A stretch of 64,000 nucleotides of DNA, taken from a virus. Both the position numbers and the translations under genes were made by a program. A model generated the notes under the pieces. It was given only the letters and a program-made list of their open reading frames with translations, did not search any database and had not been told where the DNA came from. Each line of letters opens with the position of its first letter. The stretch's first letter is position 1. The stretch lies in the UHGV virus genome UHGV-1351068. One strand, written 5' to 3'. Below are positions 215-63,582 of the stretch, one piece after another.

Positions 215-380
215 GCGCTATTTTATCCATTATGAAAGAAATGATACCCATTAGAAATGCAACACTTAACACTGATACTGTTTCAGGAAGAGACATAAAG
301 GCTGCACCGATAATGCCAAAACCCAATGCTCCCATGCAGATAGTTGATGCAACATTTCTAATTAATTCACAACGTTTCAT
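201..380 (-). CDS. small hypothetical membrane protein (59 aa)
   Basis: Hand-translated: MKRCELIRNVASTICMGALGFGIIGAAFMSLPETVSVLSVAFLMGIISFIMDKIAHEKD. SD GAGGAG lies 6 nt upstream of the ATG at 380. Immediately downstream of early promoter copy 1. Confidence 0.4.
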   Translation of the reverse strand: MKRCELIRNVASTICMGALGFGIIGAAFMSLPETVSVLSVAFLMGIISFIMDKIAHEKD

Positions 381-392
381 TTTATTCTCCTC

Positions 393-441
393 AAGTTGAT
401 AGGGTTATAGTATCACTACTACAACCCGTTGTAAACAACTT
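393..441 (-). promoter_or_regulatory. T4-type early promoter within a stem-loop cassette (PeSL-like copy 1)
   Basis: Minus strand: aaagTTGTTTACA-N17-TACTATAAC. Flanked by the inverted repeat AAGTTG/CAACTT, then SD GAGGAG and the ATG at 380. Confidence 0.55.
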
Positions 442-455
442 TGTGAAATAAATTT

Positions 456-1143
<688 letters not shown>

Positions 1144-3327: not shown

Positions 3328-3764
3328 CCTAATTTTTTAAGTGAATCTTCAGTAATTAACCTAAATTCTATACCCATTTTGTTGGCAGTTGCTTGAGCTG
3401 CTTTCCACTTATCCACATTTACAGACCATGTATAAATTTCATCAATGTACCGTTTCTTCGCTGATGTCGTCAACTTTGTGGGTTTGACCGGAGGTCTAGT
3501 TTCTTTCTTCGGCTTAACTTCAAAAAAGAACTGTTGACCATTAGAAAACTTAGCCCAGAAATCCATGAAATACCGGCGTTTCTTTCCATCTGCATTACTA
3601 AAGTATGGAATGACTACCTCTTCGCTGTTCCATTGAACTACATCTGGATGATTGTCAAGCCATCTCATCATGTACTGTTCCCACGTAGAACGATAAGTAA
3701 TCTTTCTGAAGTCGCCTTTATATTTGTGGAGATTCTGCGGCATGAATTTGCCGGAATATGCCAT
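3315..3764 (-). CDS. 4: head completion protein gp4
   Basis: 149 aa (T4 gp4 is 150 aa). Synteny. SD AAGGAGG upstream. Confidence 0.8.
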
Positions 3765-36596: not shown

Positions 36597-37721
36597 TTAC
36601 GGATAGATAATACCTGCTTCCAGCGCAGTACGATGAACAATGTATCCATTTCTAGATTCTTGTACATCGACTTCTGGATAATCGTCTAGCATTTTAGCCA
36701 GAGTATATCGGTGTAGGTAATAATCGCTGTCAGGGTCGTCGAGTTTCCAATCTTTGCCCTCAACAGTCATTCGCTGGATTTCATCCATTACCCACCAACC
36801 GCACCAGATATAAGCTGTTTCACGGAACGGCAGAGGATGAATATACGGAAGCTCTCCGTTAGGAGTAGGAGCTACCCTTTTGGTAATAGTTACATTACCA
36901 GTTGTAGTTACTGTGACTGAGTTATAATCTTCTGCGGAAACCTCAACAGAAACCCCAATCACTTGAGACCCTATATCAGACGTGTCAATCACTAAAGTAC
37001 TAGTTGAACCTTCAACAGGGGAACCGTCTTTGGTCCATGAATAAGTTCCGGATGCACCTTCTGGAGAACCGATAACGTCGGCTTTAAAAGATGCATCAGA
37101 CCCCTGCTCGACTGTAATAGATTCAGGAGTCAAAGTAACTGAAACACCACTCATTGTCTTTTTAGTGATGGTTACGCTAGCACCTTTGCTTACAGTCACT
37201 GGATTGTAATCTGGTGCAGAAACTGTTGCTTCACAATTCAGAGTATAATTAGCCTCTGCTGACTCAGTTATGGTAATCGTTTTAGCAGTCTGACCTTCAA
37301 TAACGACAGTACCACGCTTCCAGACATAAGCAATACTTGCCCCTTCTGGAGCACCAACAACGTTAGCCGTAACTACCTGAGACTGGCCAATTTCTTTAGA
37401 AACAGAAGCTGGGCTCAAAGCTAAAGTAATCGCAGGCATAGTTTTGTTCTTAACTGTCAAAGTAGTTTCTGCTTCAGCGGTTTCTGCCTCACCCTCTGCT
37501 GGGGTAACAGTAGCAACTACTTTAACAGTCTTACTGCCGGCAGGTCCTGCAGCAACATAATTCATAGCTGCGGTAACAGAAGATTGTTTTACACCATTTA
37601 CTGTCCATACAAATGTTTCTGTGCCTTCAGCTGTGGCTCCAGAAGTTGTTGCAGTAAAATTGGTTGTTGCTCCAATGACTGCCGAAGCAGCCAAAGGAGC
37701 AATAGATACGCTATAAGCCAT
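36597..37721 (-). CDS. hoc: Hoc-like outer capsid decoration protein with Ig-like domains
   Basis: 374 aa (T4 Hoc is 376 aa). Three T/V/S-rich Ig-like repeat modules plus a distinct C-terminal domain (PYIHPLPFRETAYIWCGWWVMDE). Synteny inh-hoc. Confidence 0.78.
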   Translation of the reverse strand: MAYSVSIAPLAASAVIGATTNFTATTSGATAEGTETFVWTVNGVKQSSVTAAMNYVAAGPAGSKTVKVVATVTPAEGEAETAEAETTLTVKNKTMPAITLALSPASVSKEIGQSQVVTANVVGAPEGASIAYVWKRGTVVIEGQTAKTITITESAEANYTLNCEATVSAPDYNPVTVSKGASVTITKKTMSGVSVTLTPESITVEQGSDASFKADVIGSPEGASGTYSWTKDGSPVEGSTSTLVIDTSDIGSQVIGVSVEVSAEDYNSVTVTTTGNVTITKRVAPTPNGELPYIHPLPFRETAYIWCGWWVMDEIQRMTVEGKDWKLDDPDSDYYLHRYTLAKMLDDYPEVDVQESRNGYIVHRTALEAGIIYP

Positions 37722-47316: not shown

Positions 47317-48242
47317 TGTTTACTCTCGAAGAATTTAAGAGTCAAGCGGCTGACATCGATTTCCAGAGAACTAATATGTTCTCTGTTGTATTCGCTACTG
47401 TACCCTCTAGTAAAACCCAGGCTCTTCTAAACGACTTTGGCGGAGAGCTGTATAATAATATGGGTTTAGATGGAAATTGGCTTGGATTGACACCAGGTGA
47501 ATTCAATCAGGGTATAACAACCATAGTAACACAAGGAACTCGACAGGTTGTTCGCAAATCAGGTGTGAATACATTTATGATTGGCGCAATGACACAGCGT
47601 GTTGTACAGTCGTTGTTAGGTGAATTCACAGTAGGTACTTATCTGCTTGATTTCTTTAACATGGCATTTCCGACAGCAGGCTTGATGGTGTATTCTGCTA
47701 AAATACCAGAGAATAGACTGTCATATGAAATGGATAAGTTCCATAACGCTCCTAACATAAAAATCACTGGAAGAGATATGGAGCCGTTGGTTCTTTCATT
47801 TAGGATGGACCCAGAAGCAAGCAACTATAGAGCAATGCAAGATTGGGTAAATGCAGTTGAAGACCCGGTGACTGGTCTGCGAGGATTGCCACAAGACGTA
47901 GAATGTGATATCCAAGTTAACCTTCATGCTAGAAATGGATTACCACATACTGTATGCCTGTTCTCAGGGGCTATGCCTGTAGCATGTGGAGCTCCCGAAT
48001 TTACTTACGATGGAGAAAACACAATAGCTGTGTTTGATGTCACGTTTGCTTACCGTAGCATGCAAACAGGTTCAGTTGGAAAACAAGCCGCAATGGATTG
48101 GTTAGAAGATAAAACTATTCAGAAAATTGAGACGATTAATCCAAATCAGGGCTTGAGTGCGTCTGCTTCAAGATTGTCTCGTTTAGGCGGGGCAGGTGGT
48201 GGAATTTCTAATATCACTACTTCAACAAGCAGAATAATTTAG
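47316..48242 (+). CDS. 54: baseplate tail tube initiator gp54
   Basis: 308 aa (T4 gp54 is 320 aa). Tube-fold family. Confidence 0.85.
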   Translation: MFTLEEFKSQAADIDFQRTNMFSVVFATVPSSKTQALLNDFGGELYNNMGLDGNWLGLTPGEFNQGITTIVTQGTRQVVRKSGVNTFMIGAMTQRVVQSLLGEFTVGTYLLDFFNMAFPTAGLMVYSAKIPENRLSYEMDKFHNAPNIKITGRDMEPLVLSFRMDPEASNYRAMQDWVNAVEDPVTGLRGLPQDVECDIQVNLHARNGLPHTVCLFSGAMPVACGAPEFTYDGENTIAVFDVTFAYRSMQTGSVGKQAAMDWLEDKTIQKIETINPNQGLSASASRLSRLGGAGGGISNITTSTSRII

Positions 48243-48265
48243 GGGCCTTACGGCCCCTTTGTTTT
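48242..48265 (+). terminator. rho-independent terminator after gene 54
   Basis: GGGGCC-TTAC-GGCCCC followed by TTTGTTTT. Confidence 0.7.
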
Positions 48266-48542
48266 ATGCAATGCAGCCAATAAACCCTGGCTCAGTACGA
48301 AGAAGTTTCATTTCTTCAGTAGTCCAAACTACTTTAACAGGAATAATACCTTCTGCTTTACCGTTTAGAACCGCTTCAACAAACGATGGTTCAGTTGGCT
48401 TACGGAAGATATCTTGAATAAGAACCGTCGGAGTACCTTCGTTAAACCCTTCAAGCATGATAAGCACTTCTTCGTTAAACTTCTCTGCATCTTTAACATC
48501 AGCAGACCATTCAATACCGTTAAAGCGGAATACGTGTTTCAT
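48264..48542 (-). CDS. hypothetical early protein (positional equivalent of T4 alt.-x), start trimmed to MKHVFRFNG
   Basis: 92 aa from the Met that has SD GAGGAA. Lies downstream of early promoter copy 2. Confidence 0.5.
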   Translation of the reverse strand: MKHVFRFNGIEWSADVKDAEKFNEEVLIMLEGFNEGTPTVLIQDIFRKPTEPSFVEAVLNGKAEGIIPVKVVWTTEEMKLLRTEPGFIGCIA

Positions 48543-48572
48543 ATCAATTTCCTCATTGGTTTGTGTAAGTCT

Positions 48573-48605
48573 ATAGTACCACATCCTTGTGATAAGTAAA
48601 CAACT
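48573..48605 (-). promoter_or_regulatory. T4-type early promoter (PeSL-like copy 2)
   Basis: Minus strand: ataaaGTTGTTTACT-N17-TACTATAGAC. The -35 overlaps the alt stop. Confidence 0.55.
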
Positions 48606-50732
48606 TTATGCAAGTTTTTCTGGGATACCATCCAGGTTGATAGCACCAGCCAGTAGCTCCATGGTACGTGTGTAGCTAACCTTATCTGTAGAACGGTCCG
48701 GTGAAAAGTAAATCTCATTTAAAAAGCCTTTGAACTTGCTTTCTTCAAGAGGTTCCACTTTGCCCTGTTCCATCAAGATGTCACCATCATAGAGATGAAC
48801 GGATTCATCGATTTGCTCTGGAGGAACTACCGTCATTTCTACCATGAATGTCTTGTTATTCGCTACACCAACTCCATTTCTAAAAGGAGTTCCCCATACC
48901 TTGTTAACTTTCATTGCCAACCCGCGAGGAAGAATAACTTCAGCCTCATCGCTAAAGCTTGACAAGACACCCGGGATAACTACCTTAACTTTATCGGCCC
49001 CATGAATAACGAATCCAAACTTAAACTCATCACCATAGGCAACTTCCTCGACTCTATCAACTCTTTCCAAGTTGTCTGTTCCAATAACGGAAGATACTGC
49101 ATCAATAGCTGTTTCTTTGTTTTCTAAATCAGAACTAGGTGCGTCTGGCATTAATGAATCACCAGCATTTGAATAAGCACCAAAGATAATTGGACTTAAC
49201 GAAGTAGAAACATAGTTCTGGAAATAAAACATTTTAGACTCAATGTTATCTTTAAAGTCTTCATATTTTCCTCGCTGACCACGATACAAAAGAGTGCCTG
49301 GTTCAAGACGCAAACCTTTTTCAAAGGCAGAATCGAGCGGACGAATTTTCTTGTCAATAATCGGATCGCCTAAGCTTTCCATACCAATAAGATAGTTATT
49401 AACAAATGAATAACCAGAACCACAGTAATGATGTATTGCATCTCTTTCTTCTTCGCTTAAACGAGATTGCATTTCACGGTTATATTCAATTGCTTTGGAT
49501 ATAGAATCGCCAACAATTGACACATAAGCGGATATCATATAATTGACAAGATTTTGGTATTGACGCAAAGCTCCGAAATCGTCAGCTGGAGGCATATCAA
49601 ATCCACGAGTAGCTACTTCAACGATTTTACGCATTGTTTCCATAGATGCAGGATTTTTAGCTTGAGCAATAACGTCAGCAACGTCTGAAATTCGTTGTTC
49701 AGCGATTTTCATTTTGTCTGAACCTGAAGGAATGAAAACCTTCCAGTCGTCATGCATTCTCGACATTTGGCCTACAAATAATCGCTCAACTGCATCACCA
49801 AAATTACTTCCATATCCGCCACGAACACGATAGTGCTTGATATCATCAACATAAAAAGGAATTGATTTTTCTAATCCGGCTTTGATATCTTTTTGAAGGT
49901 CTACCGTATCGCCTTCTGCGTTTAGTACTGGAGTGTTAGTAGTTAATTCGTACCAACGTTCGCGTTTATTTTCTGGCCAATCTTCATCAACATATGAAAC
50001 AAATTTGCCGTACTGTGCTCGGATTAAATCTTTTCGAGACACTTTCATTTTACTCATTACAGCGAGTTCAGATTTCTTGTCTTCTTTTTCGCCAATGGAA
50101 TTAGCCAATGCTTCGGCTTTGGTAACGCTTTCGCCGGTTTCTTTAGACACATAAACTTCGCCTACTTTGGATTCAACCTTTGTGTATAACTCATCTGAAA
50201 TTTCAGGAATTCCTTCAATCTCTTCAAGTTTCTTGCCCTTGCGAACCATAATGGAATAAGCATACTTACCTTTATAGTAAGCCATGTCTTTCATTAGATT
50301 GAAACGACCACCGGTGCGAGTAGTAATCAACCGAGCAAGAATGCGTTGAATAGCTTTATCCTGTCCTTGCATTTTCTTTGGATTAAAGCGGAACATTACT
50401 GCATCGGCTTTAATTTGTTTAACTACTTTGTTGACAGTTTCAAAGATGGTATTGATAGCACCAATCGGGTCTTGGCCTAAACCGCCTTTAAGCGCACCGA
50501 TGTTACCTTTTTCGGATACAGAGAACACGTAGACCTGGATGAATTTATCACCCATCTTGATGTTCTTAACTGCATCGCCTTGACCTGACCCGTGTACTAA
50601 GCGAATCATTAAATTGTTATTACCCGGCACCTTAATCAAAAAGACCTGTGGCACCTTAAGTTTTGGTTTAACGTTCTCGACAGGATAGATTTTGCTATTC
50701 TCTTCATCGAAAACTTCATTTAAAAGTTCCAT
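48606..50732 (-). CDS. alt: Alt-like ADP-ribosyltransferase (packaged, modifies host RNA polymerase)
   Basis: 708 aa (T4 Alt is 682 aa). Position between 54 and 30, as in T4. Late promoter upstream. Confidence 0.8.
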   Translation of the reverse strand: MELLNEVFDEENSKIYPVENVKPKLKVPQVFLIKVPGNNNLMIRLVHGSGQGDAVKNIKMGDKFIQVYVFSVSEKGNIGALKGGLGQDPIGAINTIFETVNKVVKQIKADAVMFRFNPKKMQGQDKAIQRILARLITTRTGGRFNLMKDMAYYKGKYAYSIMVRKGKKLEEIEGIPEISDELYTKVESKVGEVYVSKETGESVTKAEALANSIGEKEDKKSELAVMSKMKVSRKDLIRAQYGKFVSYVDEDWPENKRERWYELTTNTPVLNAEGDTVDLQKDIKAGLEKSIPFYVDDIKHYRVRGGYGSNFGDAVERLFVGQMSRMHDDWKVFIPSGSDKMKIAEQRISDVADVIAQAKNPASMETMRKIVEVATRGFDMPPADDFGALRQYQNLVNYMISAYVSIVGDSISKAIEYNREMQSRLSEEERDAIHHYCGSGYSFVNNYLIGMESLGDPIIDKKIRPLDSAFEKGLRLEPGTLLYRGQRGKYEDFKDNIESKMFYFQNYVSTSLSPIIFGAYSNAGDSLMPDAPSSDLENKETAIDAVSSVIGTDNLERVDRVEEVAYGDEFKFGFVIHGADKVKVVIPGVLSSFSDEAEVILPRGLAMKVNKVWGTPFRNGVGVANNKTFMVEMTVVPPEQIDESVHLYDGDILMEQGKVEPLEESKFKGFLNEIYFSPDRSTDKVSYTRTMELLAGAINLDGIPEKLA

Positions 50733-53906: not shown

Positions 53907-54073
53907 GCATCAAGCCTCACTGCCCATTCAGGCAATTCAAAGAAATCCGGAGCATCAATTTCATACTCAACGGTGTGTTGTTTAACATCAGCTGACATGA
54001 TATCAACCATTGGGTGGTTTTTCAAGCCGCAAGAAAAAATACCAGCTTTAGATTTAGGCACGGATACAATCAT
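53903..54073 (-). CDS. small hypothetical protein (56 aa)
   Basis: Hand-translated: MIVSVPKSKAGIFSCGLKNHPMVDIMSADVKQHTVEYEIDAPDFFELPEWAVRLDA. SD GAGGAA upstream. Stop overlaps the next ATG. Below the track threshold. Confidence 0.35.
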   Translation of the reverse strand: MIVSVPKSKAGIFSCGLKNHPMVDIMSADVKQHTVEYEIDAPDFFELPEWAVRLDA

Positions 54074-54083
54074 GTTAATTTCC

Positions 54084-54362
54084 TCAAAATTTAGTTATGA
54101 ATTTTTCTTTCGGCATTTTGGCATTTGAGCCATCACCGTCAGAATACCCAATTGGCATAGTTGCATTAATGAATTCAATCTTAGCATTTATAACATTAAT
54201 GCTCAGAGAATCTACGCCATCAACCATACGAAATTCAGGAGGGCAATACTTATCAATGTATGCTTTCACGCCATTTTTATTAGCAGGTGTACCATCGCGG
54301 GTATCGCTGATAATGGTTTCAACTTTTTTCTTTCGTGAATCATAGAAAGCTGATACAATCAT
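54084..54362 (-). CDS. hypothetical protein
   Basis: 92 aa ORF. Confidence 0.45.
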   Translation of the reverse strand: MIVSAFYDSRKKKVETIISDTRDGTPANKNGVKAYIDKYCPPEFRMVDGVDSLSINVINAKIEFINATMPIGYSDGDGSNAKMPKEKFITKF

Positions 54363-54374
54363 TTCAATTTCCTC

Positions 54375-54863
54375 TTAAAACGGGCGAATATTAACGTGAA
54401 CCACAGGGACAGCAAAAGGTTGCATGATTACAACTTTTGTGTCTTTAGTTGCATTCAGGCGTTGTACTTTTGCAAGATTAACAGCTTCTTCCTTTGTCAA
54501 TCCACCTTTGTAGGTATCATTTCCTTTATTTGAGGTCCAAACACCCCAATCATTGCTTCCATCGTCGGTCTTCGGTTCAAGTTCTTTGTAGATGGTTTCT
54601 TCAAAATAATGCTGAAATTCTTGATTAGTAATAATACACCACATGTGAGAAAAGCGAACTTCATCTACACTAACGCGTTTGCATTCTCCATCTGGCTTAA
54701 TGATTTCAAATTCAACTAATCCGGTATTTTCCGCATATTTAAAGGTTCTGGTAATTTTAATCGGATTATTACCGATTTGCTCAAAAACACCCTTGATAAG
54801 AGCTCCTGGAGACAAGCTTGGAGTCTTTTTAAGCTTATAGAATTTACCTTTTTCCATTATCAT
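54375..54863 (-). CDS. hypothetical protein
   Basis: 162 aa ORF. SD GAGGAAATGATA lies just downstream of the UUCG hairpin. Confidence 0.5.
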   Translation of the reverse strand: MIMEKGKFYKLKKTPSLSPGALIKGVFEQIGNNPIKITRTFKYAENTGLVEFEIIKPDGECKRVSVDEVRFSHMWCIITNQEFQHYFEETIYKELEPKTDDGSNDWGVWTSNKGNDTYKGGLTKEEAVNLAKVQRLNATKDTKVVIMQPFAVPVVHVNIRPF

Positions 54864-54866
54864 TTC

Positions 54867-54880
54867 CTCAATAGTGGGGC
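54867..54880 (-). promoter_or_regulatory. intercistronic UUCG hairpin (stop, hairpin, SD, start)
   Basis: GGGGC-TTCG-GCCCC between the stop at 54897 and the ATG at 54863. Confidence 0.45.
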
Positions 54881-54896
54881 CGAAGCCCCGAGTTAG

Positions 54897-55256
54897 TTAA
54901 AACTTGATTTCGTTTGAAACGATATCCCAGATTGCTTCACGTTGTTCTTCGGTTGTTTTACGACCGAGGATGTGGCGCAGATAAATTTTAACAAGCAGCT
55001 GACGATTTGTGTTCCAAGACGGATGTGAAGATAAATCACGTTTACGAACTTCATCATGGAATCCAACTTTGATTTCAGAACCGTTGAACTGAATATCCAG
55101 AGTAGGACCATTTTCAAAGCTGAAGAATACGTAGTTATCTTCCCAGTACATATCGATTTGAGCTACTGTGCCGTTGTTGTGTTCCCACAGCAAAGTAGTA
55201 GAAACGTCCCAAGCATTGTTCTGTACATATTTGCGGTTGAAGTTAGTGAAGTTCAT
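54897..55256 (-). CDS. hypothetical early protein (start trimmed to MNFTNFNRKY)
   Basis: 120 aa from the Met, which has SD GGAGAA. Lies immediately downstream of early promoter copy 3. Confidence 0.5.
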   Translation of the reverse strand: MNFTNFNRKYVQNNAWDVSTTLLWEHNNGTVAQIDMYWEDNYVFFSFENGPTLDIQFNGSEIKVGFHDEVRKRDLSSHPSWNTNRQLLVKIYLRHILGRKTTEEQREAIWDIVSNEIKF

Positions 55257-55272
55257 TTTTATTCTCCGTAGT

Positions 55273-55335
55273 TTGTTTATCTGTTTGGGTGGTACAGGTC
55301 TATAGTAACCCAGACCACCCAAGAAGTAAACAACT
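55273..55335 (-). promoter_or_regulatory. early promoter / stem-loop cassette (PeSL-like copy 3)
   Basis: Minus strand: aaaaGTTGTTTACT-N17-TACTATAGAC. The long imperfect inverted repeat TTGTTTActtcTTGGGTGGT ... ACCACCCAAacagaTAAACAA encloses the -10 element. Confidence 0.6.
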
Positions 55336-55349
55336 TTTATTCAAAAACT

Positions 55350-55859
55350 TCAGACATTTTTCACCTCTACAGTTTTTACAGTTTTTACTTCTGCAAATCC
55401 GATGCTTTTAAACAGTTCATACTTGGTAGTTTCTGGAACGATATCGGTTAGCTCAAGGATGATTTCTTTTGCTTCTTCCAGAGTAAAGATGCTTCTTCCG
55501 TCCTTAACGACCGGTGCTGGTTTAATAGCAGCTGATACTTCAAAAACCACGTAGCGGTCAGTAGTACTTTGATTTTCAAACGCTCCTATTTGCACAACCC
55601 GTCCTTCTTCTAACTCGTGAGAAGAAAATAAGCATGACAGAGACCGGTCATATTCATCTCCTATGGTTTTTGCCGAAATGATTTTACCAGTTTCGGTTTT
55701 AATCTTAACAACCCGGCCCAGCGAATCAAGTTCTAATGGCGTCCAGCCTTGAACTCCAACAACGGTGGCAATGAGATAGTTAATTGTGTTCTTAGCGTCT
55801 TTCCATCTACGGTAAGTTTCTGGGGAAATGCAATATACTCGGTTTTTGCTGTAATTCAT
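55350..55859 (-). CDS. hypothetical protein
   Basis: 169 aa ORF. Confidence 0.5.
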   Translation of the reverse strand: MNYSKNRVYCISPETYRRWKDAKNTINYLIATVVGVQGWTPLELDSLGRVVKIKTETGKIISAKTIGDEYDRSLSCLFSSHELEEGRVVQIGAFENQSTTDRYVVFEVSAAIKPAPVVKDGRSIFTLEEAKEIILELTDIVPETTKYELFKSIGFAEVKTVKTVEVKNV

Positions 55860-55877
55860 TTTGATATCCTCAAAGAT

Positions 55878-55891
55878 GGGGCCGAAGCCCC
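55878..55891 (-). promoter_or_regulatory. intercistronic UUCG hairpin
   Basis: GGGGC-TTCG-GCCCC between the stop at 55900 and SD GAGGA / ATG at 55859. Confidence 0.45.
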
Positions 55892-55899
55892 AGTCAAGA

Positions 55900-56268
55900 T
55901 TACTGTTTAGTCCAATTATCCATGTTTAATTTACCAACCTTTTTCATTTGTTCAATTAAAGCATCGGCACGATTACGACCATTTTCATACCAGGTTACAT
56001 CTTCTGAGTAACCGTCTTCTTCATCTGTGTAGGTTTCAGAACGAATACGACCAACAACTGGAGTGTTCAGAACATATACAGAACCTGTGAACCAGTTTGT
56101 TAAAGTGATATGCCAGCAGAAATCATCTGATGGACCGTCCGGTGTCATGCATGGAACGATATCACCTTGAACTTTAGACAAAATCCACATTTTCTCATGG
56201 ACAGTTTGAGCTTTGTAACCGTCATGGTCTTTAGTCTTGATAGTTGCGTTCAGGTTGATGGTATTCAT
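55900..56268 (-). CDS. hypothetical early protein
   Basis: 122 aa. SD GGAGAA. Lies immediately downstream of early promoter copy 4. Its 5' leader is near-identical to that of the gene at 55256. Confidence 0.5.
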   Translation of the reverse strand: MNTINLNATIKTKDHDGYKAQTVHEKMWILSKVQGDIVPCMTPDGPSDDFCWHITLTNWFTGSVYVLNTPVVGRIRSETYTDEEDGYSEDVTWYENGRNRADALIEQMKKVGKLNMDNWTKQ

Positions 56269-56279
56269 TTTATTCTCCG

Positions 56280-56340
56280 TTGTCCGTTTGGGTGGTACAG
56301 GTCTATAGTAACCTTGTTGAACTTAGAAGTAAACAACTTT
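56280..56340 (-). promoter_or_regulatory. early promoter cassette (PeSL-like copy 4, upstream stem arm degenerate)
   Basis: Minus strand: aaaaaaGTTGTTTACT-N17-TACTATAGACCTGTACCACCCAAAC. About 70 nt is near-identical to copy 3. Confidence 0.6.
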
Positions 56341-56354
56341 TTTCATTCTGCGGA

Positions 56355-56384
56355 AAATAAAAAAGGGACTCCCGAAGGAGTCCC
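56355..56384 (-). terminator. rho-independent terminator
   Basis: Minus strand: GGGACTCC-TTCG-GGAGTCCC followed by TTTTTTATTTT. Confidence 0.7.
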
Positions 56385-56389
56385 TGAAC

Positions 56390-56566
56390 TTATGCTTTCG
56401 GCTTACCAAAACGAGAAGCATCATCGCGAAGAACCGCACGAGCCCGACGCATGATTTTCTCAACCGTCTGATTGATACGCTTGTTCGACCCACGCTTGTA
56501 GCCAGCGCGTTTAGAGGTACCAACAACTTCTTTTACTGCAGTTTTTGCTTTAGCTTGTTTAGCCAT
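56390..56566 (-). CDS. small highly basic protein (58 aa from MAKQAKAK)
   Basis: Sequence MAKQAKAKTAVKEVVGTSKRAGYKRGSNKRINQTVEKIMRRARAVLRDDASRFGKPKA. Lys/Arg-rich. Start uncertain: the track's 68-aa version begins 30 nt upstream. Confidence 0.4.
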   Translation of the reverse strand: MAKQAKAKTAVKEVVGTSKRAGYKRGSNKRINQTVEKIMRRARAVLRDDASRFGKPKA

Positions 56567-56596
56567 TTTATCATCTTCCATTTTGGAGAAATACAT

Positions 56597-56935
56597 GGGA
56601 GCACGTTCTTCCGAGGTTCAACTTCTTTCGACAGTTCTTTCGGTTGTAGCTCCCGCAAGCCCTCAAGGGGGTACGTTTAAACTCTTATCTGTTGCACACC
56701 GTTAGCTTAAAGGTTCCGGGTCCGATTTATCGGGGATAAGATATACACCGATGGATGTATAGGCCTTGAGGCGTACTCCCGATTGGCCATCGCCTCGGGG
56801 TAGCATGCACTTGCCGTTTATTTTCTAGCTGCACTTTGGTAGCAAATCACCGTTGGTTTCGGGTGTTTTACGTGGGGATAACCAACAACGTCCACATCAT
56901 ACGTTACCCATGCGTACACATGGTGGGCGTACAAA
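56597..56935 (-). ncRNA. ORF-free GC-rich hairpin-dense island; candidate structured non-coding RNA or long structured leader
   Basis: 340 bp with no ORF above 36 aa in any frame. About 48-50% GC against about 40% for the flanks. Multiple stems, for example GAGGCG...CGCCTC, GTTGGTT...AACCAAC, GGGAGC...GCTCCC and CCGA...TCGG. Confidence 0.3.
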
Positions 56936-57184
56936 TTACTTCAGCGTTACCACAAAGTGGCGAACAGCTTTGCGAGCAGCAGAACCAAGATGCTTAGCAT
57001 ACTTCAGTTCGTCCATCGCTTCTAAAGTATCACGAAATTCAGCTTGTGCTGGGTTCAGGTGTTTAAACCCTTTCAGAACTTCCAGTGTTTCTGCATAGAT
57101 ATCGATTGAAGCACCGTAGTTTTCGTGACCGGAATTCCATGCATTACGTTGGAGTTCCAGAGCTTTAGTAAGTTGTTTGTTCAT
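56936..57184 (-). CDS. rIII: rIII lysis-inhibition accessory protein (start trimmed to MNKQLTKALELQRNAW)
   Basis: 82 aa from the Met with SD GAGGAA, the same length as T4 rIII. Position immediately downstream of gene 31, as in T4. Confidence 0.65.
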   Translation of the reverse strand: MNKQLTKALELQRNAWNSGHENYGASIDIYAETLEVLKGFKHLNPAQAEFRDTLEAMDELKYAKHLGSAARKAVRHFVVTLK

Positions 57185-57299
57185 TGAATCGTTCCTCAAA
57201 TGAGGTTAAAATTTGGTGGACGGTAACCGAGGTTTAGCTCGGGCATCCACCGCGTAGAATTGCTCGGGTAACTAATTGTCCGACGCCCAATTCATATTA

Positions 57300-57623
57300 T
57301 TATTTATATACGCATGCAAGGGACTTATAATGACAAGTCACAAACTTCTGCCGAATTTCTTTGGGTTTCTTCACACCTGCTGCTACTAACGGATGAGGTA
57401 CGTTTCTGATATTACCAACAGGCAGTGGAGTCAAATCACCGACTTCAACAAATCCTTTCGGTACATCATCACCGATAGAATAGATTTCACACATATCCGG
57501 CAGTTGTCCTTGTTCTTCTTTTCCAAGAATAATACCGGAAGGAGAAACAATTTCATCACCTTGCTGTGCAGGTTCAGATACGAGAATTACATACTCGCCT
57601 AGAGCTTTAATTGGAAGTTCCAT
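57300..57623 (-). CDS. 31: co-chaperonin gp31 (GroES-like)
   Basis: 107 aa. Long near-identical runs to T4 gp31: [45 protein letters not shown]. Confidence 0.92.
57301..57308 (-). promoter_or_regulatory. late promoter for rIII
   Basis: Minus-strand TATAAATA overlapping the gene 31 stop. Followed by a GC-rich structured leader. Confidence 0.5.
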
Positions 57624-57653
57624 GTGTTACCTTTATTGTTTGACCATGTAGTT

Positions 57654-57680
57654 ATATTAACATGGTCAGTTTAAAGCAAA
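57654..57680 (-). promoter_or_regulatory. MotA-dependent middle promoter for gene 31
   Basis: Minus strand: TTTGCTTTA (MotA box), 12 nt, then TAATAT. SD AAAGG follows, then the ATG at 57623. Confidence 0.5.
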
Positions 57681-57989
57681 TTACTTACCGATCATCTGCT
57701 GCAGATGCTCAACTTTCATACCATTTACCGAGATCAGTTTATCAAAGGTAAATGAGCGCCAACCTTCTTTCTCAGTATCATATACAGGAAGTGAAGTAGT
57801 GCTTTCTGCTCGAGCAGATTTAGTAGTGCTTTCTACCAAATCAGATGGAATAATGTCTTTATCACGAGTACAGCGCAGAGTACGAATAGTGCCATCAGCT
57901 TTTTCAAACACAATCTGGGATTCGCCCATGCTCAGCACAGCCTTCAGAGTTTCACGAATATGGATGTTTTGTTCAGTAGTCAGTTTCAT
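57681..57989 (-). CDS. hypothetical protein (positional equivalent of T4 31.1)
   Basis: 102 aa ORF. Confidence 0.5.
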   Translation of the reverse strand: MKLTTEQNIHIRETLKAVLSMGESQIVFEKADGTIRTLRCTRDKDIIPSDLVESTTKSARAESTTSLPVYDTEKEGWRSFTFDKLISVNGMKVEHLQQMIGK

Positions 57990-58186
57990 TTTGATGTCTC
58001 TTTAATAGTTTTGATAATTACAGATTTGCGCTTGGATAATTCTTTTAATAATCGAACTGCTTGATCTTCAAATTTAAATGTTGCTAATGGTTTCCATTTA
58101 AACCAATACCGGCGTTCTACTGAGTATGATATAACAACATCACCACTTAGGTTAAGTTTATTAATTTCAACAATTCTAAGTTTCAT
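57986..58186 (-). CDS. hypothetical protein (positional equivalent of T4 31.2)
   Basis: 66 aa. ATGA coupling. Confidence 0.45.
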   Translation of the reverse strand: MKLRIVEINKLNLSGDVVISYSVERRYWFKWKPLATFKFEDQAVRLLKELSKRKSVIIKTIKETSK

Positions 58187-58755
58187 TATTCAATTCCACA
58201 GAATTCTTTAATGTTATACCAATTCAACTTATCCAAATTACGTTTTGGAACATTGAACACCTCGATTCCAGCAGAACGAAGAATATCGTCCCAACCGGGT
58301 TCGTTCTTGTCGTATGTTTCGCAGTATACTAATTTTTTAATACCAGACTGAGCGATGGCTTTTGCACAATCTGGACATGGAGACAGTGTGACATACATTG
58401 TTGCTCCATCAATACTACTGCCGTTCCGGGCAGCAAAAAGAATAGCATTAAGCTCAGCATGGATTTCATTGACTTTAGACCATGCAGAGTGGGCTGCTCG
58501 ATGTTCTTTGAGCAATCCGACTTTTTTGACTTGGAATCCGTCTTGACGCAATCCCGTAGATTTGTAAGGAATTTCACCAATCCAACCTTGTTCTGCTGCA
58601 TGGTCACAACAGTTCACACCACCAGAAGGTGAACCGTTATAGCCAGTAGAAATAATTCGTCCGTTCTTTTCAATTACTGCGCCGACTTTCCACGAGCAGC
58701 ATTTTGACTCTTGAGATACGAGATACGCAATTTGTAGTACCGTCGACGCTTTCAT
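58186..58755 (-). CDS. cd: dCMP deaminase
   Basis: 189 aa (T4 Cd is 193 aa). Zinc motifs HAELNAI and PCPDCA. Confidence 0.92.
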   Translation of the reverse strand: MKASTVLQIAYLVSQESKCCSWKVGAVIEKNGRIISTGYNGSPSGGVNCCDHAAEQGWIGEIPYKSTGLRQDGFQVKKVGLLKEHRAAHSAWSKVNEIHAELNAILFAARNGSSIDGATMYVTLSPCPDCAKAIAQSGIKKLVYCETYDKNEPGWDDILRSAGIEVFNVPKRNLDKLNWYNIKEFCGIE

Positions 58756-60515: not shown

Positions 60516-60727
60516 TATACATCCTTAAGAGTGTCAATAAAATCATGAAGAGCCTTAGACTTTTCACCCCAATTTGCACGATATTTTTCTTTAATTGCTC
60601 GCAATGGCTTATTCATTGACAGTATATCATTTTTGTCATAATTTTCAGCTGCGCGTCCAAACACGATGCACGCCAATTCATTTTCAGCAATTAATCCTTT
60701 AAGTGTTTCATACTGTTCTTGATTCAC
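60515..60727 (-). CDS. hypothetical protein (apparent GTG start)
   Basis: 70 aa. The TAGTG junction with the upstream ORF suggests a GTG start. No in-frame ATG nearby. Confidence 0.35.
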   Translation of the reverse strand: MNQEQYETLKGLIAENELACIVFGRAAENYDKNDILSMNKPLRAIKEKYRANWGEKSKALHDFIDTLKDV

Positions 60728-61212
60728 TACATCACCATTTTAGAAAGATTGCGATGCGCCAATGAGCGACGCTTTCCATGTTTCTTCAAAAAATTGTTAA
60801 CTTCATCTTGCTCTACACCGCCACTTTCTACAAATTGGAGTGCCTTACCGAATTCAATTGAGGCATCTTCCAATTCAGAAATTGCTTCCTTCAATGCCTC
60901 TTTACGCTGAACAAACTTCAAGAAATCAGGATACATGAATTCTACCATGAATAGTTTAAACCACACATCAAACGAAATTCGTGTTTGGTCATTAAGCTCA
61001 AACACTCTTTCTTTTAAAGCGCCAGGTACACTAACACGGACTGTATAAACATATCCATTAGAAATATTTTCTGGTATAACAGTAGCTTTCTTATCAAGAG
61101 GAGTTAACTGGCACGATCCAACAGCTAGCATATTTCTGAGCTGTGTATTTTTAATCGATAAAAGATGCGATGCGTCTTTTACAAAGTAAGAATAAAAATG
61201 TGACGGTTCCAT
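60727..61212 (-). CDS. hypothetical protein
   Basis: 161 aa ORF. Confidence 0.5.
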   Translation of the reverse strand: MEPSHFYSYFVKDASHLLSIKNTQLRNMLAVGSCQLTPLDKKATVIPENISNGYVYTVRVSVPGALKERVFELNDQTRISFDVWFKLFMVEFMYPDFLKFVQRKEALKEAISELEDASIEFGKALQFVESGGVEQDEVNNFLKKHGKRRSLAHRNLSKMVM

Positions 61213-61871: not shown

Positions 61872-62368
61872 AGTTTAAGGATAACCTCTACGATATCATC
61901 ACGGGATAATCCCGAAATGAGGATGTGACGATCAGAACTTTCCGAAGGAGAACACTTGAAGCAAGCTTCTACATATTCTGCCATCTCGGAATAATTCAGC
62001 TCGCGATGCATAATGCCAAGACGATGTTTGCCATAAATCGGGTCAACGATTACATAGCATTTGCATCCGTTGGCATGAACGTTTGGTTGAGTGATGTTCT
62101 TGAACACCTCTGCACCATACTTCGCGAGATGATTATCTAGGAAATCAATCATTTCATCTACGGCTTCAGGCAAGGCTTCAGCACGCTGCTCGTTCACACG
62201 ATTGGTGTACTCTTTTTGCTTCTTACGAGCAGCTTCCTTACGCGCCATATGCGTTCGTAGGTCAGTGACGAATCCCACTTTCTTGGTGCCATTCCACACA
62301 AAAATCCCGTCGGAATGAGTACCATATTTGTTAACAACCATATCTAAAGTAATTGCTTGCATATCCAT
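61859..62368 (-). CDS. alc: Alc-like protein (positional equivalent of T4 alc)
   Basis: 169 aa (T4 Alc is 167 aa). Lies between rnlA and pseT.3, as in T4. Has its own early promoter. Confidence 0.45.
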   Translation of the reverse strand: MDMQAITLDMVVNKYGTHSDGIFVWNGTKKVGFVTDLRTHMARKEAARKKQKEYTNRVNEQRAEALPEAVDEMIDFLDNHLAKYGAEVFKNITQPNVHANGCKCYVIVDPIYGKHRLGIMHRELNYSEMAEYVEACFKCSPSESSDRHILISGLSRDDIVEVILKLCSK

Positions 62369-62374
62369 TTCATT

Positions 62375-62432
62375 ATCCTCATCAGTTGGTGTAAGTCTAT
62401 AGTATCACACCTTGATGAGGATGTAAACAGCT
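62375..62432 (-). promoter_or_regulatory. early promoter / stem-loop cassette (PeSL-like copy 5) that sequesters the alc SD
   Basis: Minus strand: ctGTTTACA-N17-TACTATAGAC. The 10-bp perfect inverted repeat ATCCTCATCA/TGATGAGGAT, plus the inner GGTGTGA/TTACACC, encloses the -10. The 3' arm contains SD GAGGAT. Confidence 0.6.
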
Positions 62433-63582
62433 ATTCTTCAGAAATTTCAATTTCTTTTTCGTACTCTTTTGGAACATATCCAGCCCAGTACTTCAAGAAC
62501 ACTTTTTCAAGGTCTTTAAGCAGTTTATCTACATCTACTGTTCCTTCATACATGTTCATGATAACACCAAAAAGATGACGCTGATTAACCGTTGCTTTCT
62601 GTGCAGCAATGGCATAGTCTTTACGAGCACGACCTCTGTATTCATCATAGAATGACTGACACAGCTCAAGTGACTTTCCAAGGTAATCTAGATAAGCTTG
62701 CTCAAATGCAGAAATTTTCTTAATTGCATATTCGTCTCCAGCAAAAAGAGAACGCAAGTCATCAGAGTTTGCAGATACGACAGACGCAAACAGTCTTTCA
62801 TTTGACGTTATTGAGTCTTTGGTGTGATGAAGAGCTGAGTACCATTCTGTTTTAACCTTAAATCTCTGCCCAGTGTTTAGAACTGCAATGTATCCTTCTA
62901 CGCCTTCAAGTGCACGAACACCTTCAACCCAAGTACTAGGGTCAGAAATTCCATAAGCATTAATTAAATAAGGACGAATTTTAGCATTAGCGTACAAATC
63001 GTCATATTTAACATACTCGCCGGTTGCGTTATCACGGACGTTTAACACAAACAATTGTGGCTCCTGATATGCAAGAACAACACGATTATCAGGTGAAACA
63101 AATTCCATGTTTACCGTATAACCATCTAGCGTTAACTCAAGAACGACTTGATGAAGCGAAGAATACTCTTCACTATTAAGCAGGGCAGAAGACCTTCTCG
63201 CCTGGTCACTATAAAGAGAGGTTTTTGATTTAAGATATAGATACCCATCATCAACATAAGATGACACTAGAGAGCCATCAGCCTTATCCATAATGTATTC
63301 TACATCACTAATATCAATTCCCATTGTCATCGGGTTTTCATTCAAGTTAAAGAATTTTTCCATTGGACGAGAAGCAATACGAATTGGAGTATCACCATCC
63401 ATTTCAAACATGATGCCACGGCACTCAAGAGCATCTGGTTTTAACCACTCGCTATAACTTGCGTAGTGATATGAAAACACTCTGAACTTACCATCCATAG
63501 GACCAGTAAAATCTTTATAAAAGAATTTTGCAACTTCTGAGCTTTCACACAGATTCATTAAATTTTTATATAGCTCTAACAT
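62431..63582 (-). CDS. rnlA: RNA ligase 1
   Basis: 383 aa (T4 Rnl1 is 374 aa). N-terminus and ALECRGIMFEMDG, IASRPMEKFFNLNENP match T4. Adenylation lysine in KADGSL. Confidence 0.92.
   Translation of the reverse strand: MLELYKNLMNLCESSEVAKFFYKDFTGPMDGKFRVFSYHYASYSEWLKPDALECRGIMFEMDGDTPIRIASRPMEKFFNLNENPMTMGIDISDVEYIMDKADGSLVSSYVDDGYLYLKSKTSLYSDQARRSSALLNSEEYSSLHQVVLELTLDGYTVNMEFVSPDNRVVLAYQEPQLFVLNVRDNATGEYVKYDDLYANAKIRPYLINAYGISDPSTWVEGVRALEGVEGYIAVLNTGQRFKVKTEWYSALHHTKDSITSNERLFASVVSANSDDLRSLFAGDEYAIKKISAFEQAYLDYLGKSLELCQSFYDEYRGRARKDYAIAAQKATVNQRHLFGVIMNMYEGTVDVDKLLKDLEKVFLKYWAGYVPKEYEKEIEISEE

Follow-up and report, generated by a model that had tools for sequence, protein, structure and literature searches.

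What are the five similar promoter segments that precede minus-strand early genes in the virus genome UHGV-1351068, and do they act as more than promoters? In the stretch of this genome analysed here (64,000 nucleotides, referred to as the window), an initial annotation had listed five copies of an extended promoter motif and likened them to the promoter-early stem-loop (PeSL) cassettes of T4-type phages, suggesting a cassette that spreads as a unit. By definition, a PeSL has a sigma-70-type early promoter, an AT-rich tract directly upstream of its -35 and a stem-loop (PMC2839356, Arbiol 2010; PMC4122927); the stem-loop lies between -35 and -10, overlaps -10 or sits upstream, and the element is bounded by the upstream stop codon at one end and by a Shine-Dalgarno sequence (SD) and ATG at the other (PMC2839356; PMC4122927). 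Our analysis indicates that the five sites, numbered c1 to c5 along the window, are very probably immediate-early promoters of the T4 class lying in PeSL-type cassettes, usually with a stem-loop, that serve as recombination substrates.

Five probable early promoters in a T4-like Klebsiella phage

The window comes from a T4-like Klebsiella phage of the genus Jiaodavirus: its segment 54800-57200 shares 99.9% identity with VMC04 (Klebsiella phage ValerieMcCarty04; Straboviridae, Tevenvirinae, Jiaodavirus), and ~160 further Klebsiella T4-like phages also match this segment. The gene order runs from a tRNA/internal-protein region through late structural genes to a minus-strand early region arranged as alt - ligase - 30.x - rIII - 31 - cd - pseT - alc - rnlA - denA. 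The pattern GTTTACW-N17-TACTATA matches four times in the window, always on the minus strand (G of the -35 at 436, 55331, 56334 and 62428), and never in 100 dinucleotide shuffles; the fifth copy, c2 (-35 at 48601), has a spacer shorter by one base (N16). A two-block position weight matrix (PWM), built from the VMC04 family and then used to scan the window, returns exactly these five sites at scores of 33-42, with a runner-up of 12.4 and a maximum of ~12 in shuffled sequence. Since the five stand so far above both the next score and the shuffles, the list given in the initial annotation, with every copy before a minus-strand early gene, is complete, and the motif is not the compositional artefact that it had named as a possible refutation. 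A generic sigma-70 scan, tried as a detector of the family, was discarded for want of enrichment, its 38 sites falling short of the 43 that shuffles would yield, so that only the extended motif singles out the family.

All five sites lie in small gaps separating minus-strand genes, with -35 located 2 (c5), 4 (c2), 18 (c3), 19 (c1) or 55 nt (c4) from the stop codon and with SD and ATG 25-45 nt past -10. Every PeSL bound that can be checked is therefore present, namely an intergenic position, a stop codon on one side and SD/ATG on the other. The genome-wide search that had been suggested extends the family beyond the window: a loose form of the pattern has 30 matches in the complete VMC04 genome, ~26 of which are on the minus strand, intergenic and followed by SD and ATG, the remainder being weak. 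PeSLs are described as recurring in a genome and gathered in hyperplastic regions; within the window, c1, c3 and c4 occupy variable segments, and c2 and c5 sit between conserved genes.

The five sites can be assigned to the T4 class of early promoters, with an A-tract, -35 GTTTAC, TGn and -10 TACTAT. T4 early promoters consist of UP, -35, TGn and -10 elements plus further consensus regions (PMC2988021, Hinton review), with GTTTAC at -36 to -31 and an A-rich tract at -40 to -44 (PMC1524935, Nolan et al.). These features stand before early-gene orthologues in the window, the TG being present in c1, c2 and c5 and absent from c3 and c4. The VMC04 family logo is also conserved at positions that played no part in the selection of sites: the A-tract (A in 80-92% at -8, -6, -5 and -4, counted from the G of GTTTAC), TG at -15/-14 (88-100%) and the start region. 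GTTTAC is preceded by AAAGTT or AAAAAGTT in four copies and by ATAGCT in c5. The T4/PST PeSL promoter consensus, TTTACW-N17-TAYWAT (PMC4122927, Comeau 2014), is found at 5/5 sites, c2 with N16; both the published definitions and this shared consensus thus bear out the PeSL parallel. The longer consensus proposed at first describes the copies in general, with departures in c5 (GCTGTTTAC), c1 (TACTATAACC), the spacer of c2, and c3 and c4, where the extended -10 has no TG. Conservation beyond the needs of sigma-70 recognition is by itself no indication of mobility, a long consensus being part of how T4 early promoters are known to function. MotA-type middle promoters at these sites were ruled out, there being no TGCTT box.

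The positions of the sites have counterparts in other phages. T4 carries a terminator and a GTTTAC promoter after 30.9, equivalent to c4, a GTTTAC promoter between 30.8 and 30.7 with a hairpin over its -10, equivalent to c3, and a GTTTAC promoter between rnlA and alc, equivalent to c5; c1 has its counterpart in the T4-like phage fPS-2, where a predicted early promoter matches it at ~90% identity across ~100 bp. After infection, the host sigma-70 RNA polymerase would bind the A-tract, -35 GTTTAC(W), TGn (in c1, c2 and c5) and -10 TACTAT, and transcription would start ~7 nt past -10 (predicted +1 at ~400, 48566, 55295, 56298 and 62392), giving a short A/C-rich leader followed by a strong SD and the early gene.

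The c3 promoter overlaps a gene as currently annotated. The TTG start of VMC04_224 (OR271596), at window position 55322, falls inside the c3 promoter spacer, and the true start of the gene downstream of c3 is likely the ATG at 55256, which has GGAGAA ahead of it. The product name 'putative baseplate hub subunit' looks doubtful, because the flanking promoters lie at the T4 30.8/30.7 positions.

Stem-loops within the promoters

Each copy was folded from the spacer to +30 and compared with 300 shuffles in which only the variable spacer bases were permuted. The minimum free energy (MFE) of c5 is -22.1 kcal/mol vs -4.7 +/- 2.1 in shuffles (0/300 as good), that of c1 is -16.0 vs -6.3 +/- 2.3 (0/300), and that of c3 is -21.7 vs -12.8 +/- 2.7 (fraction 0.003 as good). 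At the family level, the z-score reaches -8.2 for the five window copies and -12.4 for 25 VMC04 copies. In the structured copies, the 5' arm falls within the spacer and the 3' arm at or past -10. An inverted repeat enclosing -35 and/or -10, which had been ascribed to every copy, is thus significant in c1, c3 and c5, weak in c2 and missing from c4. Taken as a PeSL component, the stem-loop is internal in c1, c3 and c5, is represented at c4 by a terminator hairpin upstream of the promoter, and at c2 amounts to a spacer hairpin of 7 bp, which falls short of significance. T4 and fPS-2 have another hairpin (GGTACAGG/CCTGTACC) at the promoter equivalent to c3.

The element upstream of c4 has the make-up of a canonical intrinsic terminator. 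In VMC04, such an upstream terminator accompanies 6/11 cassettes without a significant internal hairpin vs 0/14 with one (a post hoc comparison; hypergeometric p ~0.003, computed by hand). This complementarity fits the idea of a composite promoter-terminator.

A covarying helix ahead of alc

The c5 stem-loop can be followed through the T4-like phages. We gathered the rnlA-alc junction from 22 T4-like contigs by means of an alignment query, a single-protein locus search for alc having returned 7 loci only. The promoter site is present at this junction in T4 and in 18 other T4-like phages, and nearly all of the 22 junctions have a long inverted repeat that extends from just after -35 to the alc SD and differs in sequence from phage to phage: the arms are ATCCTCATCA/TGATGAGGAT in the window, and ATCTCCGTTT/AAACGGAGAT or AACCTCTCATTTT/AAAATGAGAGGTT elsewhere. 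In T4 itself (MT984581, junction at 2781-2845), the two arms that pair are AAGTCCCTCGTGTT in the spacer and AACATGAGGACTT over the alc SD. Cognate arms of the c5 family pair at -17.7 kcal/mol vs -9.2 for non-cognate arms, with none of 20,000 permutations as good. RNAalifold predicts nine pairs in the alc junctions, eight of them with compensatory changes; 90.4% of the cells are paired vs 71% in shuffles (0/500), and the covariation score is 0.561 vs 0.234 (0/500), slid registers reaching at most 53%. The arms of the c1 orthologues covary as well (GGGTT/AACCC, GGGCT/AGCCC, GGGTA/TACCC, GGGAT/ATCCC), with -12.6 kcal/mol for cognate vs -9.5 for non-cognate pairs and again 0/20,000 permutations as good. 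Covariation at c5 and c1 shows that these stem-loops are under selection.

The geometry of the helices restricts where they can form. Since the intergenic gaps are so short (2-19 nt), the spacer of the promoter holds the 5' arm and the 3' arm follows downstream of -10, so that both arms occur together only in single-stranded DNA or in RNA that continues through from the gene upstream. The stem-loops would accordingly act on read-through transcripts, and insulation of the cassette from read-through is their likeliest role. Structure prediction illustrates it best at c5: the computed probability of an unpaired SD is 0.01 for read-through RNA, as opposed to 0.94 for RNA that starts at the cassette's promoter. 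As the 3' arm is the alc SD, alc would be translated from its own early promoter only. In some alc orthologues the spacer pairs upstream of the SD instead, and the same prediction gives no SD sequestration for c1-c4. At c4, the classical terminator upstream would fill the insulating role; the c1 and c3 hairpins, with no U-tract and no cover over the SD, may serve as attenuators, in 3'-end protection or at the DNA level.

We tentatively suggest that the promoter-embedded stem-loops are selected RNA helices which couple translation to promoter choice, and are not mainly terminators or recombination signals; we regard this as plausible, though it falls somewhat short of an even chance. In the literature searched, in which pre-2000 T4 papers are mostly outside coverage, we found no description of the alc hairpin. 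The covarying alc helix, common to T4, is the one new lead of the analysis.

Recombination at the cassettes

Comparison of relatives, the course that had been proposed for recognising exchange, places some indel boundaries in the cassettes. In PKO111, KP185 and Phi_KR1 the region is covered in two pieces and is ~1 kb shorter. At the PKO111 junction, sequence upstream of c4 and the c4 spacer run into the block shared by c4 and c3 and continue as c3 downstream sequence; exactly 1003 bp, which hold the 30.8-like gene together with the gene beside it, are missing, and the crossover falls between -10 and SD. A contiguous junction of this type occurs in >30 records. As T4 has 30.8, loss of the c4-c3 module probably represents the derived state. 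At c1, an additional gene of 384 bp is present in VMC04 and K65_evo9, with a breakpoint between -35 and -10, where identity to VMC04 falls from 98% to 84%; fPS-2 has at this place an internal-protein gene flanked by two predicted early promoters, and among Jiaodaviruses three different cassette variants stand before one and the same gene. In Roth16, the insertion of an additional gene falls at the upstream edge of c3. As judged from these alignments, the relatives show that recombination at cassettes deleted the c4-c3 module and swapped promoter variants at c1.

Dispersed copies also share sequence that lies outside the promoter elements. Six pairs of cassettes have spacers at least 75% identical vs 0.34 expected, and eight pairs share 5' untranslated regions (5'UTRs) vs 0 expected; the sharing pairs include c3/c4, c2/c5 and c2 with two distant copies. 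The c2 spacer is near-identical to those of two distant VMC04 cassettes, and its 5'UTR equals that of c5 at 22/26 positions. Since the copies share identical blocks of 17-28 nt, they serve as substrates for homologous recombination.

Several insertions and deletions elsewhere complete this comparison. Opposite 26629, Roth16 has an endonuclease-like gene between the tail sheath and tail tube genes; opposite 40080, it has a homing endonuclease within the uvsW region; and opposite ~3750, ~740 extra bp near the head-completion/baseplate divergent junction. None of these three extra genes adjoins an early cassette. The small genes 57986-58186 and 60727-61212 are absent from PKO111 and Roth16, respectively; an identical 9 nt (AATGAAACT) flanking the first of these indels, at both gene starts, suggests microhomology recombination at overlapping stop/start junctions, not at cassettes. 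The Hoc-like head decoration gene (~36886-37424) is ~285-295 bp longer than in VMC04, JD18 and PKO111; judging from the BLAST overlap, it may contain one more internal domain repeat. At 55860-55900, a GC hairpin (GGGGCTTCGGCCCC) separates the two genes of the c4-c3 module, close ahead of the SD of the second one, in a stretch that has no promoter motif.

Comparison with known systems

The cassettes resemble the PeSLs of RB49 and phi1 in their succession of stop codon, AT tract, strong early promoter, stem-loop over or near -10, SD and ATG, in their G-run/C-run stem-loops (GGG..CCC in c1, GGGTGG..CCACCC in c3), and in recombination between copies that removes the intervening genes, with the crossover between -10 and SD. 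The commonest layout in RB49/phi1 places the 5' arm in the spacer and the 3' arm at or after -10, and Arbiol et al. mapped mini-circle crossovers between -10 and SD, speculating that the stem-loop may be a recombination target (PMC2839356). In contrast, the RB49/phi1 promoters are near-perfect TTGACA-N17-TATAAT, where the window has GTTTAC and TACTAT, and a significant internal stem-loop is present in only 3/5 window copies. Mini-circles, promoter strength and terminator activity were measured in RB49/phi1.

With the T4/PST PeSLs, the window shares its promoter consensus, the placement of c3 before 30.7, of c4 before 30.8 and of c5 before alc, the terminator that follows 30.9 and the hairpin over the -10 of the 30.7 site. 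The two differ in that the T4/PST stem-loops lie just upstream of the promoter (PMC4122927) and those of the window mostly overlap it, in the host genus and in the phage genus (Jiaodavirus). Unlike in T4, a c3-type leader has taken the place of the c4 leader, a replacement that creates the direct repeat supporting the deletion. We found no report of PeSLs in Klebsiella phages in the literature searched.

For the alc helix, the nearest parallels are the T4 hairpins that sequester the ribosome-binding site (RBS) and contain an internal promoter, at genes e, soc, 49 and I-TevI (PMC3014915); alc is not listed among the RBS-sequestering examples of that review. As in those genes, the SD of c5, and of c5 only, is predicted to be paired in transcripts started upstream and free in RNA from the internal promoter. 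Unlike them, where late or middle promoters delay translation, the internal promoter of c5 is early: it has -35 GTTTAC, no MotA box and no late TATAAATA, and so shows none of the marks of a later class. With regard to intrinsic terminators, the element upstream of c4 is of the textbook kind and matches the T4 terminator after 30.9, unlike the internal hairpins of c1, c3 and c5.

Alternative explanations

Several observations speak against a uniform reading of the five sites as recombining stem-loop cassettes. Hairpin formation is not significant in c2 (MFE -6.0 kcal/mol, shuffle fraction 0.17), and c4 has no internal hairpin above chance (-6.2 kcal/mol, fraction 0.58). The hairpins of c1, c3 and c5 have no U-tract, being followed by TATCAACT, ACAGATAA and AATGAAAT, respectively, and are for this reason not canonical terminators. 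Sense and antisense strands fold about equally (20 vs 10, p = 0.14), and strands so similar do not prove that the role is one in RNA as opposed to DNA. SD sequestration is predicted in ~4-5/26 cassettes (family mean 0.41 vs 0.45, fraction 0.07) and was rejected as a general cassette function at the family level. The c2 and c5 regions are collinear, with no indels in ~140 relatives. Relative to four relatives there are 9 indels of at least 30 bp, and 3/9 touch a cassette; the other six are two homing-endonuclease insertions, the hoc repeat, the insertion near 3750 and two whole-gene indels elsewhere, one of which carries a 9-nt microhomology. Mosaic identity boundaries are scattered, with none at c2-c5; change points against VMC04 fall inside genes except at c1, and the idea of cassettes as general mosaic boundaries was dropped. 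Promoter activity and start sites in this phage are themselves predicted from the sequence and from what is known of T4.

Some of these points favour the view that the sites are ordinary strong early promoters, maintained independently, whose hairpins and shared flanks are incidental and without special recombination role. Selection for polymerase binding alone (UP, -35, TGn, -10 and the Alt-modified alpha subunit) would then explain the shared sequence. The extended consensus is indeed functional in T4 early promoters (PMC2988021, PMC1524935), c3, c4 and c5 occupy T4 sites and c1 that of the fPS-2 predicted promoter, c2 and c5 are without indels, and most indels and mosaic boundaries lie elsewhere. 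Selection of this kind does not account for hairpins that exceed spacer shuffles by 8-12 standard deviations and covary, for spacer and 5'UTR positions that the polymerase does not read and that are near-identical among dispersed copies, or for the PKO111 crossover inside a shared cassette block. Moreover, three cassette indels were observed vs ~0.15 expected from the cassettes' 1.6% share of the window (hand arithmetic), a strong association by window length; set against a conservative early-gene-junction null, it is only suggestive (~0.07 by hand arithmetic). We therefore consider ordinary promoters a distinctly unlikely explanation. What the data do not favour is the original notion of a cassette spreading as a unit. 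Exchange of sub-blocks between copies is seen, but positional orthology with T4 and fPS-2, together with the lack of indels at c2 and c5, indicates that the cassettes are mostly inherited in place with sub-block exchange and would not be autonomous spreading units. They are one shuffling route among several.

Two further proposals concern what the stem-loops do. They might act as hairpins or cruciforms in single-stranded or supercoiled DNA, promoting recombination or template switching or modulating promoter opening, instead of as read-through RNA structures. Most arms pair by Watson-Crick rules, both strands fold about equally, crossovers map within cassettes, and a recombination target has been speculated upon (PMC2839356). 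Nevertheless, a DNA role does not predict that the 3' arm should coincide with the SD, as it does at c5 and in several cassettes across lineages; of the significant hairpins in the VMC04 family, most fold better as sense than as antisense strand; and the exchange in PKO111 falls within the -10/leader block common to both copies and not at a hairpin, c4 having none. A DNA-level function therefore appears unlikely. The internal stem-loops might alternatively terminate or attenuate upstream transcription, as proposed for the PeSLs of RB49/phi1, where one RB49 stem-loop lowered lacZ expression as much as rrnB T1 (PMC2839356), and VMC04 cassettes without an internal hairpin often have a canonical terminator upstream, as c4 does. 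The missing U-tracts make canonical intrinsic termination improbable at c1, c3 and c5, where a consensus terminator scan has no entry either, and we hold a terminator or attenuator role to be doubtful, at roughly one chance in four.

Coordinates of the cassettes and neighbouring features

Table 1 Positions of the early-promoter cassettes and their parts in the window
Feature	Position	Strand	Details
c1 cassette	378..458	-	PWM 39.0; upstream stop TAG 458-456, then A/T tract
c1 elements		-	-35 GTTTAC 436-431; TGA; -10 TACTAT 412-407; predicted +1 ~400
c1 gene start		-	SD GAGGAG 392; ATG 380-378 of 59-aa membrane protein
c1 stem-loop	402..427	-	5' arm GGGTTGTAGTA 427-417, in spacer
c1 stem-loop, 3' arm	412-402	-	TACTATAACCC; -10 hexamer + 5 nt
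c2 cassette	48540..48608	-	PWM 42.1; upstream alt stop TAA 48608-48606
c2 elements		-	-35 GTTTAC 48601-48596; spacer -1 base; TGG; -10 TACTAT 48578-48573
c2 gene start		-	SD GAGGAA 48554; ATG 48542-48540
c2 spacer hairpin	48594-48577	-	7 bp; not significant
c3 cassette	55254..55352	-	PWM 33.8; upstream stop TGA 55352-55350
c3 elements		-	-35 GTTTAC 55331-55326; -10 TACTAT 55307-55302
c3 gene start		-	SD GGAGAA 55267; ATG 55256-55254; gene at T4 30.7 position
c3 stem-loop	55285..55322	-	Outer arms TTGGGTGGT 55322-55314 and ACCACCCAA 55293-55285; weak inner stem round -10
c4 cassette	56266..56390	-	PWM 38.4; begins at stop of 30.9-like gene (56390)
c4 upstream intrinsic terminator	56385-56364	-	AGGGACTCC-ttcg-GGAGTCCCT + T-run
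c4 elements		-	A-tract; -35 GTTTAC 56334-56329; -10 TACTAT 56310-56305
c4 gene start		-	SD GGAGAA 56278; ATG 56268-56266 of 30.8-like gene
c5 cassette (alc promoter)	62366..62433	-	PWM 33.1; upstream rnlA stop TAG 62433-62431
c5 elements		-	-35 GTTTAC 62428-62423; TGA; -10 TACTAT 62404-62399; predicted +1 ~62392
c5 gene start		-	SD GAGGA 62380-62376; alc ATG 62368-62366
c5 stem-loop	62375..62422	-	Outer arms ATCCTCATCA 62422-62413 and TGATGAGGAT 62384-62375, over SD
c5 inner arms	62411-62405 and 62394-62388	-	-10 in loop
Two-gene module	55332..56334	-	1003 bp; 30.8-like open reading frame (ORF) 55900-56268 + ORF 55350-55859; edges c4 and c3
28-nt block GGTTACTATAGACCTGTACCACCCAAAC	c4 56313-56286; c3 55310-55283	-	Identical; crossover zone of PKO111-type deletion
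Second c3/c4 identical block AAAAGTTGTTTACTTCT	56341-56325 and 55338-55322	-	

Three further features of the window were recorded. On the minus strand, a GC-rich gap of 340 bp separates rIII (stop 56936) from the 30.9-like ORF (start 56596) and contains a 135-nt non-coding core (56682-56816, minus strand) that is 94-95% identical in phages of distant genera, namely JS10/JS98-type phages, several Tequatroviruses and Enterobacter phages, many of the matching records carrying no annotation there. At megablast level T4 does not match this core, only the adjacent 30.9 gene being matched; the core contains no tRNA and does not fold significantly (z -1.7 and -1.1), and an Rfam search of 54000-58500 gave no match at E <= 1. 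Its near-identity across genera and patchy presence suggest a horizontally moving element or an undescribed RNA. Upstream of gene 31, at 57681-57623 on the minus strand, a MotA-box-like middle promoter (ATTTGCTTTA, then TAATAT) has a 7-bp inverted repeat, GACCATG/CATGGTC, across its -10, and looks like a PmSL-like middle-promoter counterpart of the early cassettes. A perfect hairpin, AGGGGCC-ttac-GGCCCCT, occupies 48241-48258, where the tail tube gene on the plus strand converges with the small minus-strand ORF that c2 drives; the scan lists it as terminator-like for either strand.

Implications

The PeSL architecture, known from RB49/phi1, T4/PST and KVP40/nt-1, would now extend to the Jiaodaviruses, a genus much used in Klebsiella phage therapy, and it comes with a base-resolved example in which a two-gene module was lost via a crossover inside a 28-nt cassette block. 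The promoter sites also correct at least one annotated gene start, that of VMC04_224. If the stem-loops do couple translation to promoter choice, rnlA read-through RNA would be silent for alc, and Alc would be made from early-promoter RNA only. The principle described for e, soc, 49 and I-TevI would thereby extend to early promoters, and it could explain the frequent overlap of PeSL stem-loops with their promoters. As the alc helix is present in T4, the idea of PeSL stem-loops as translational insulators is directly testable in the model phage.

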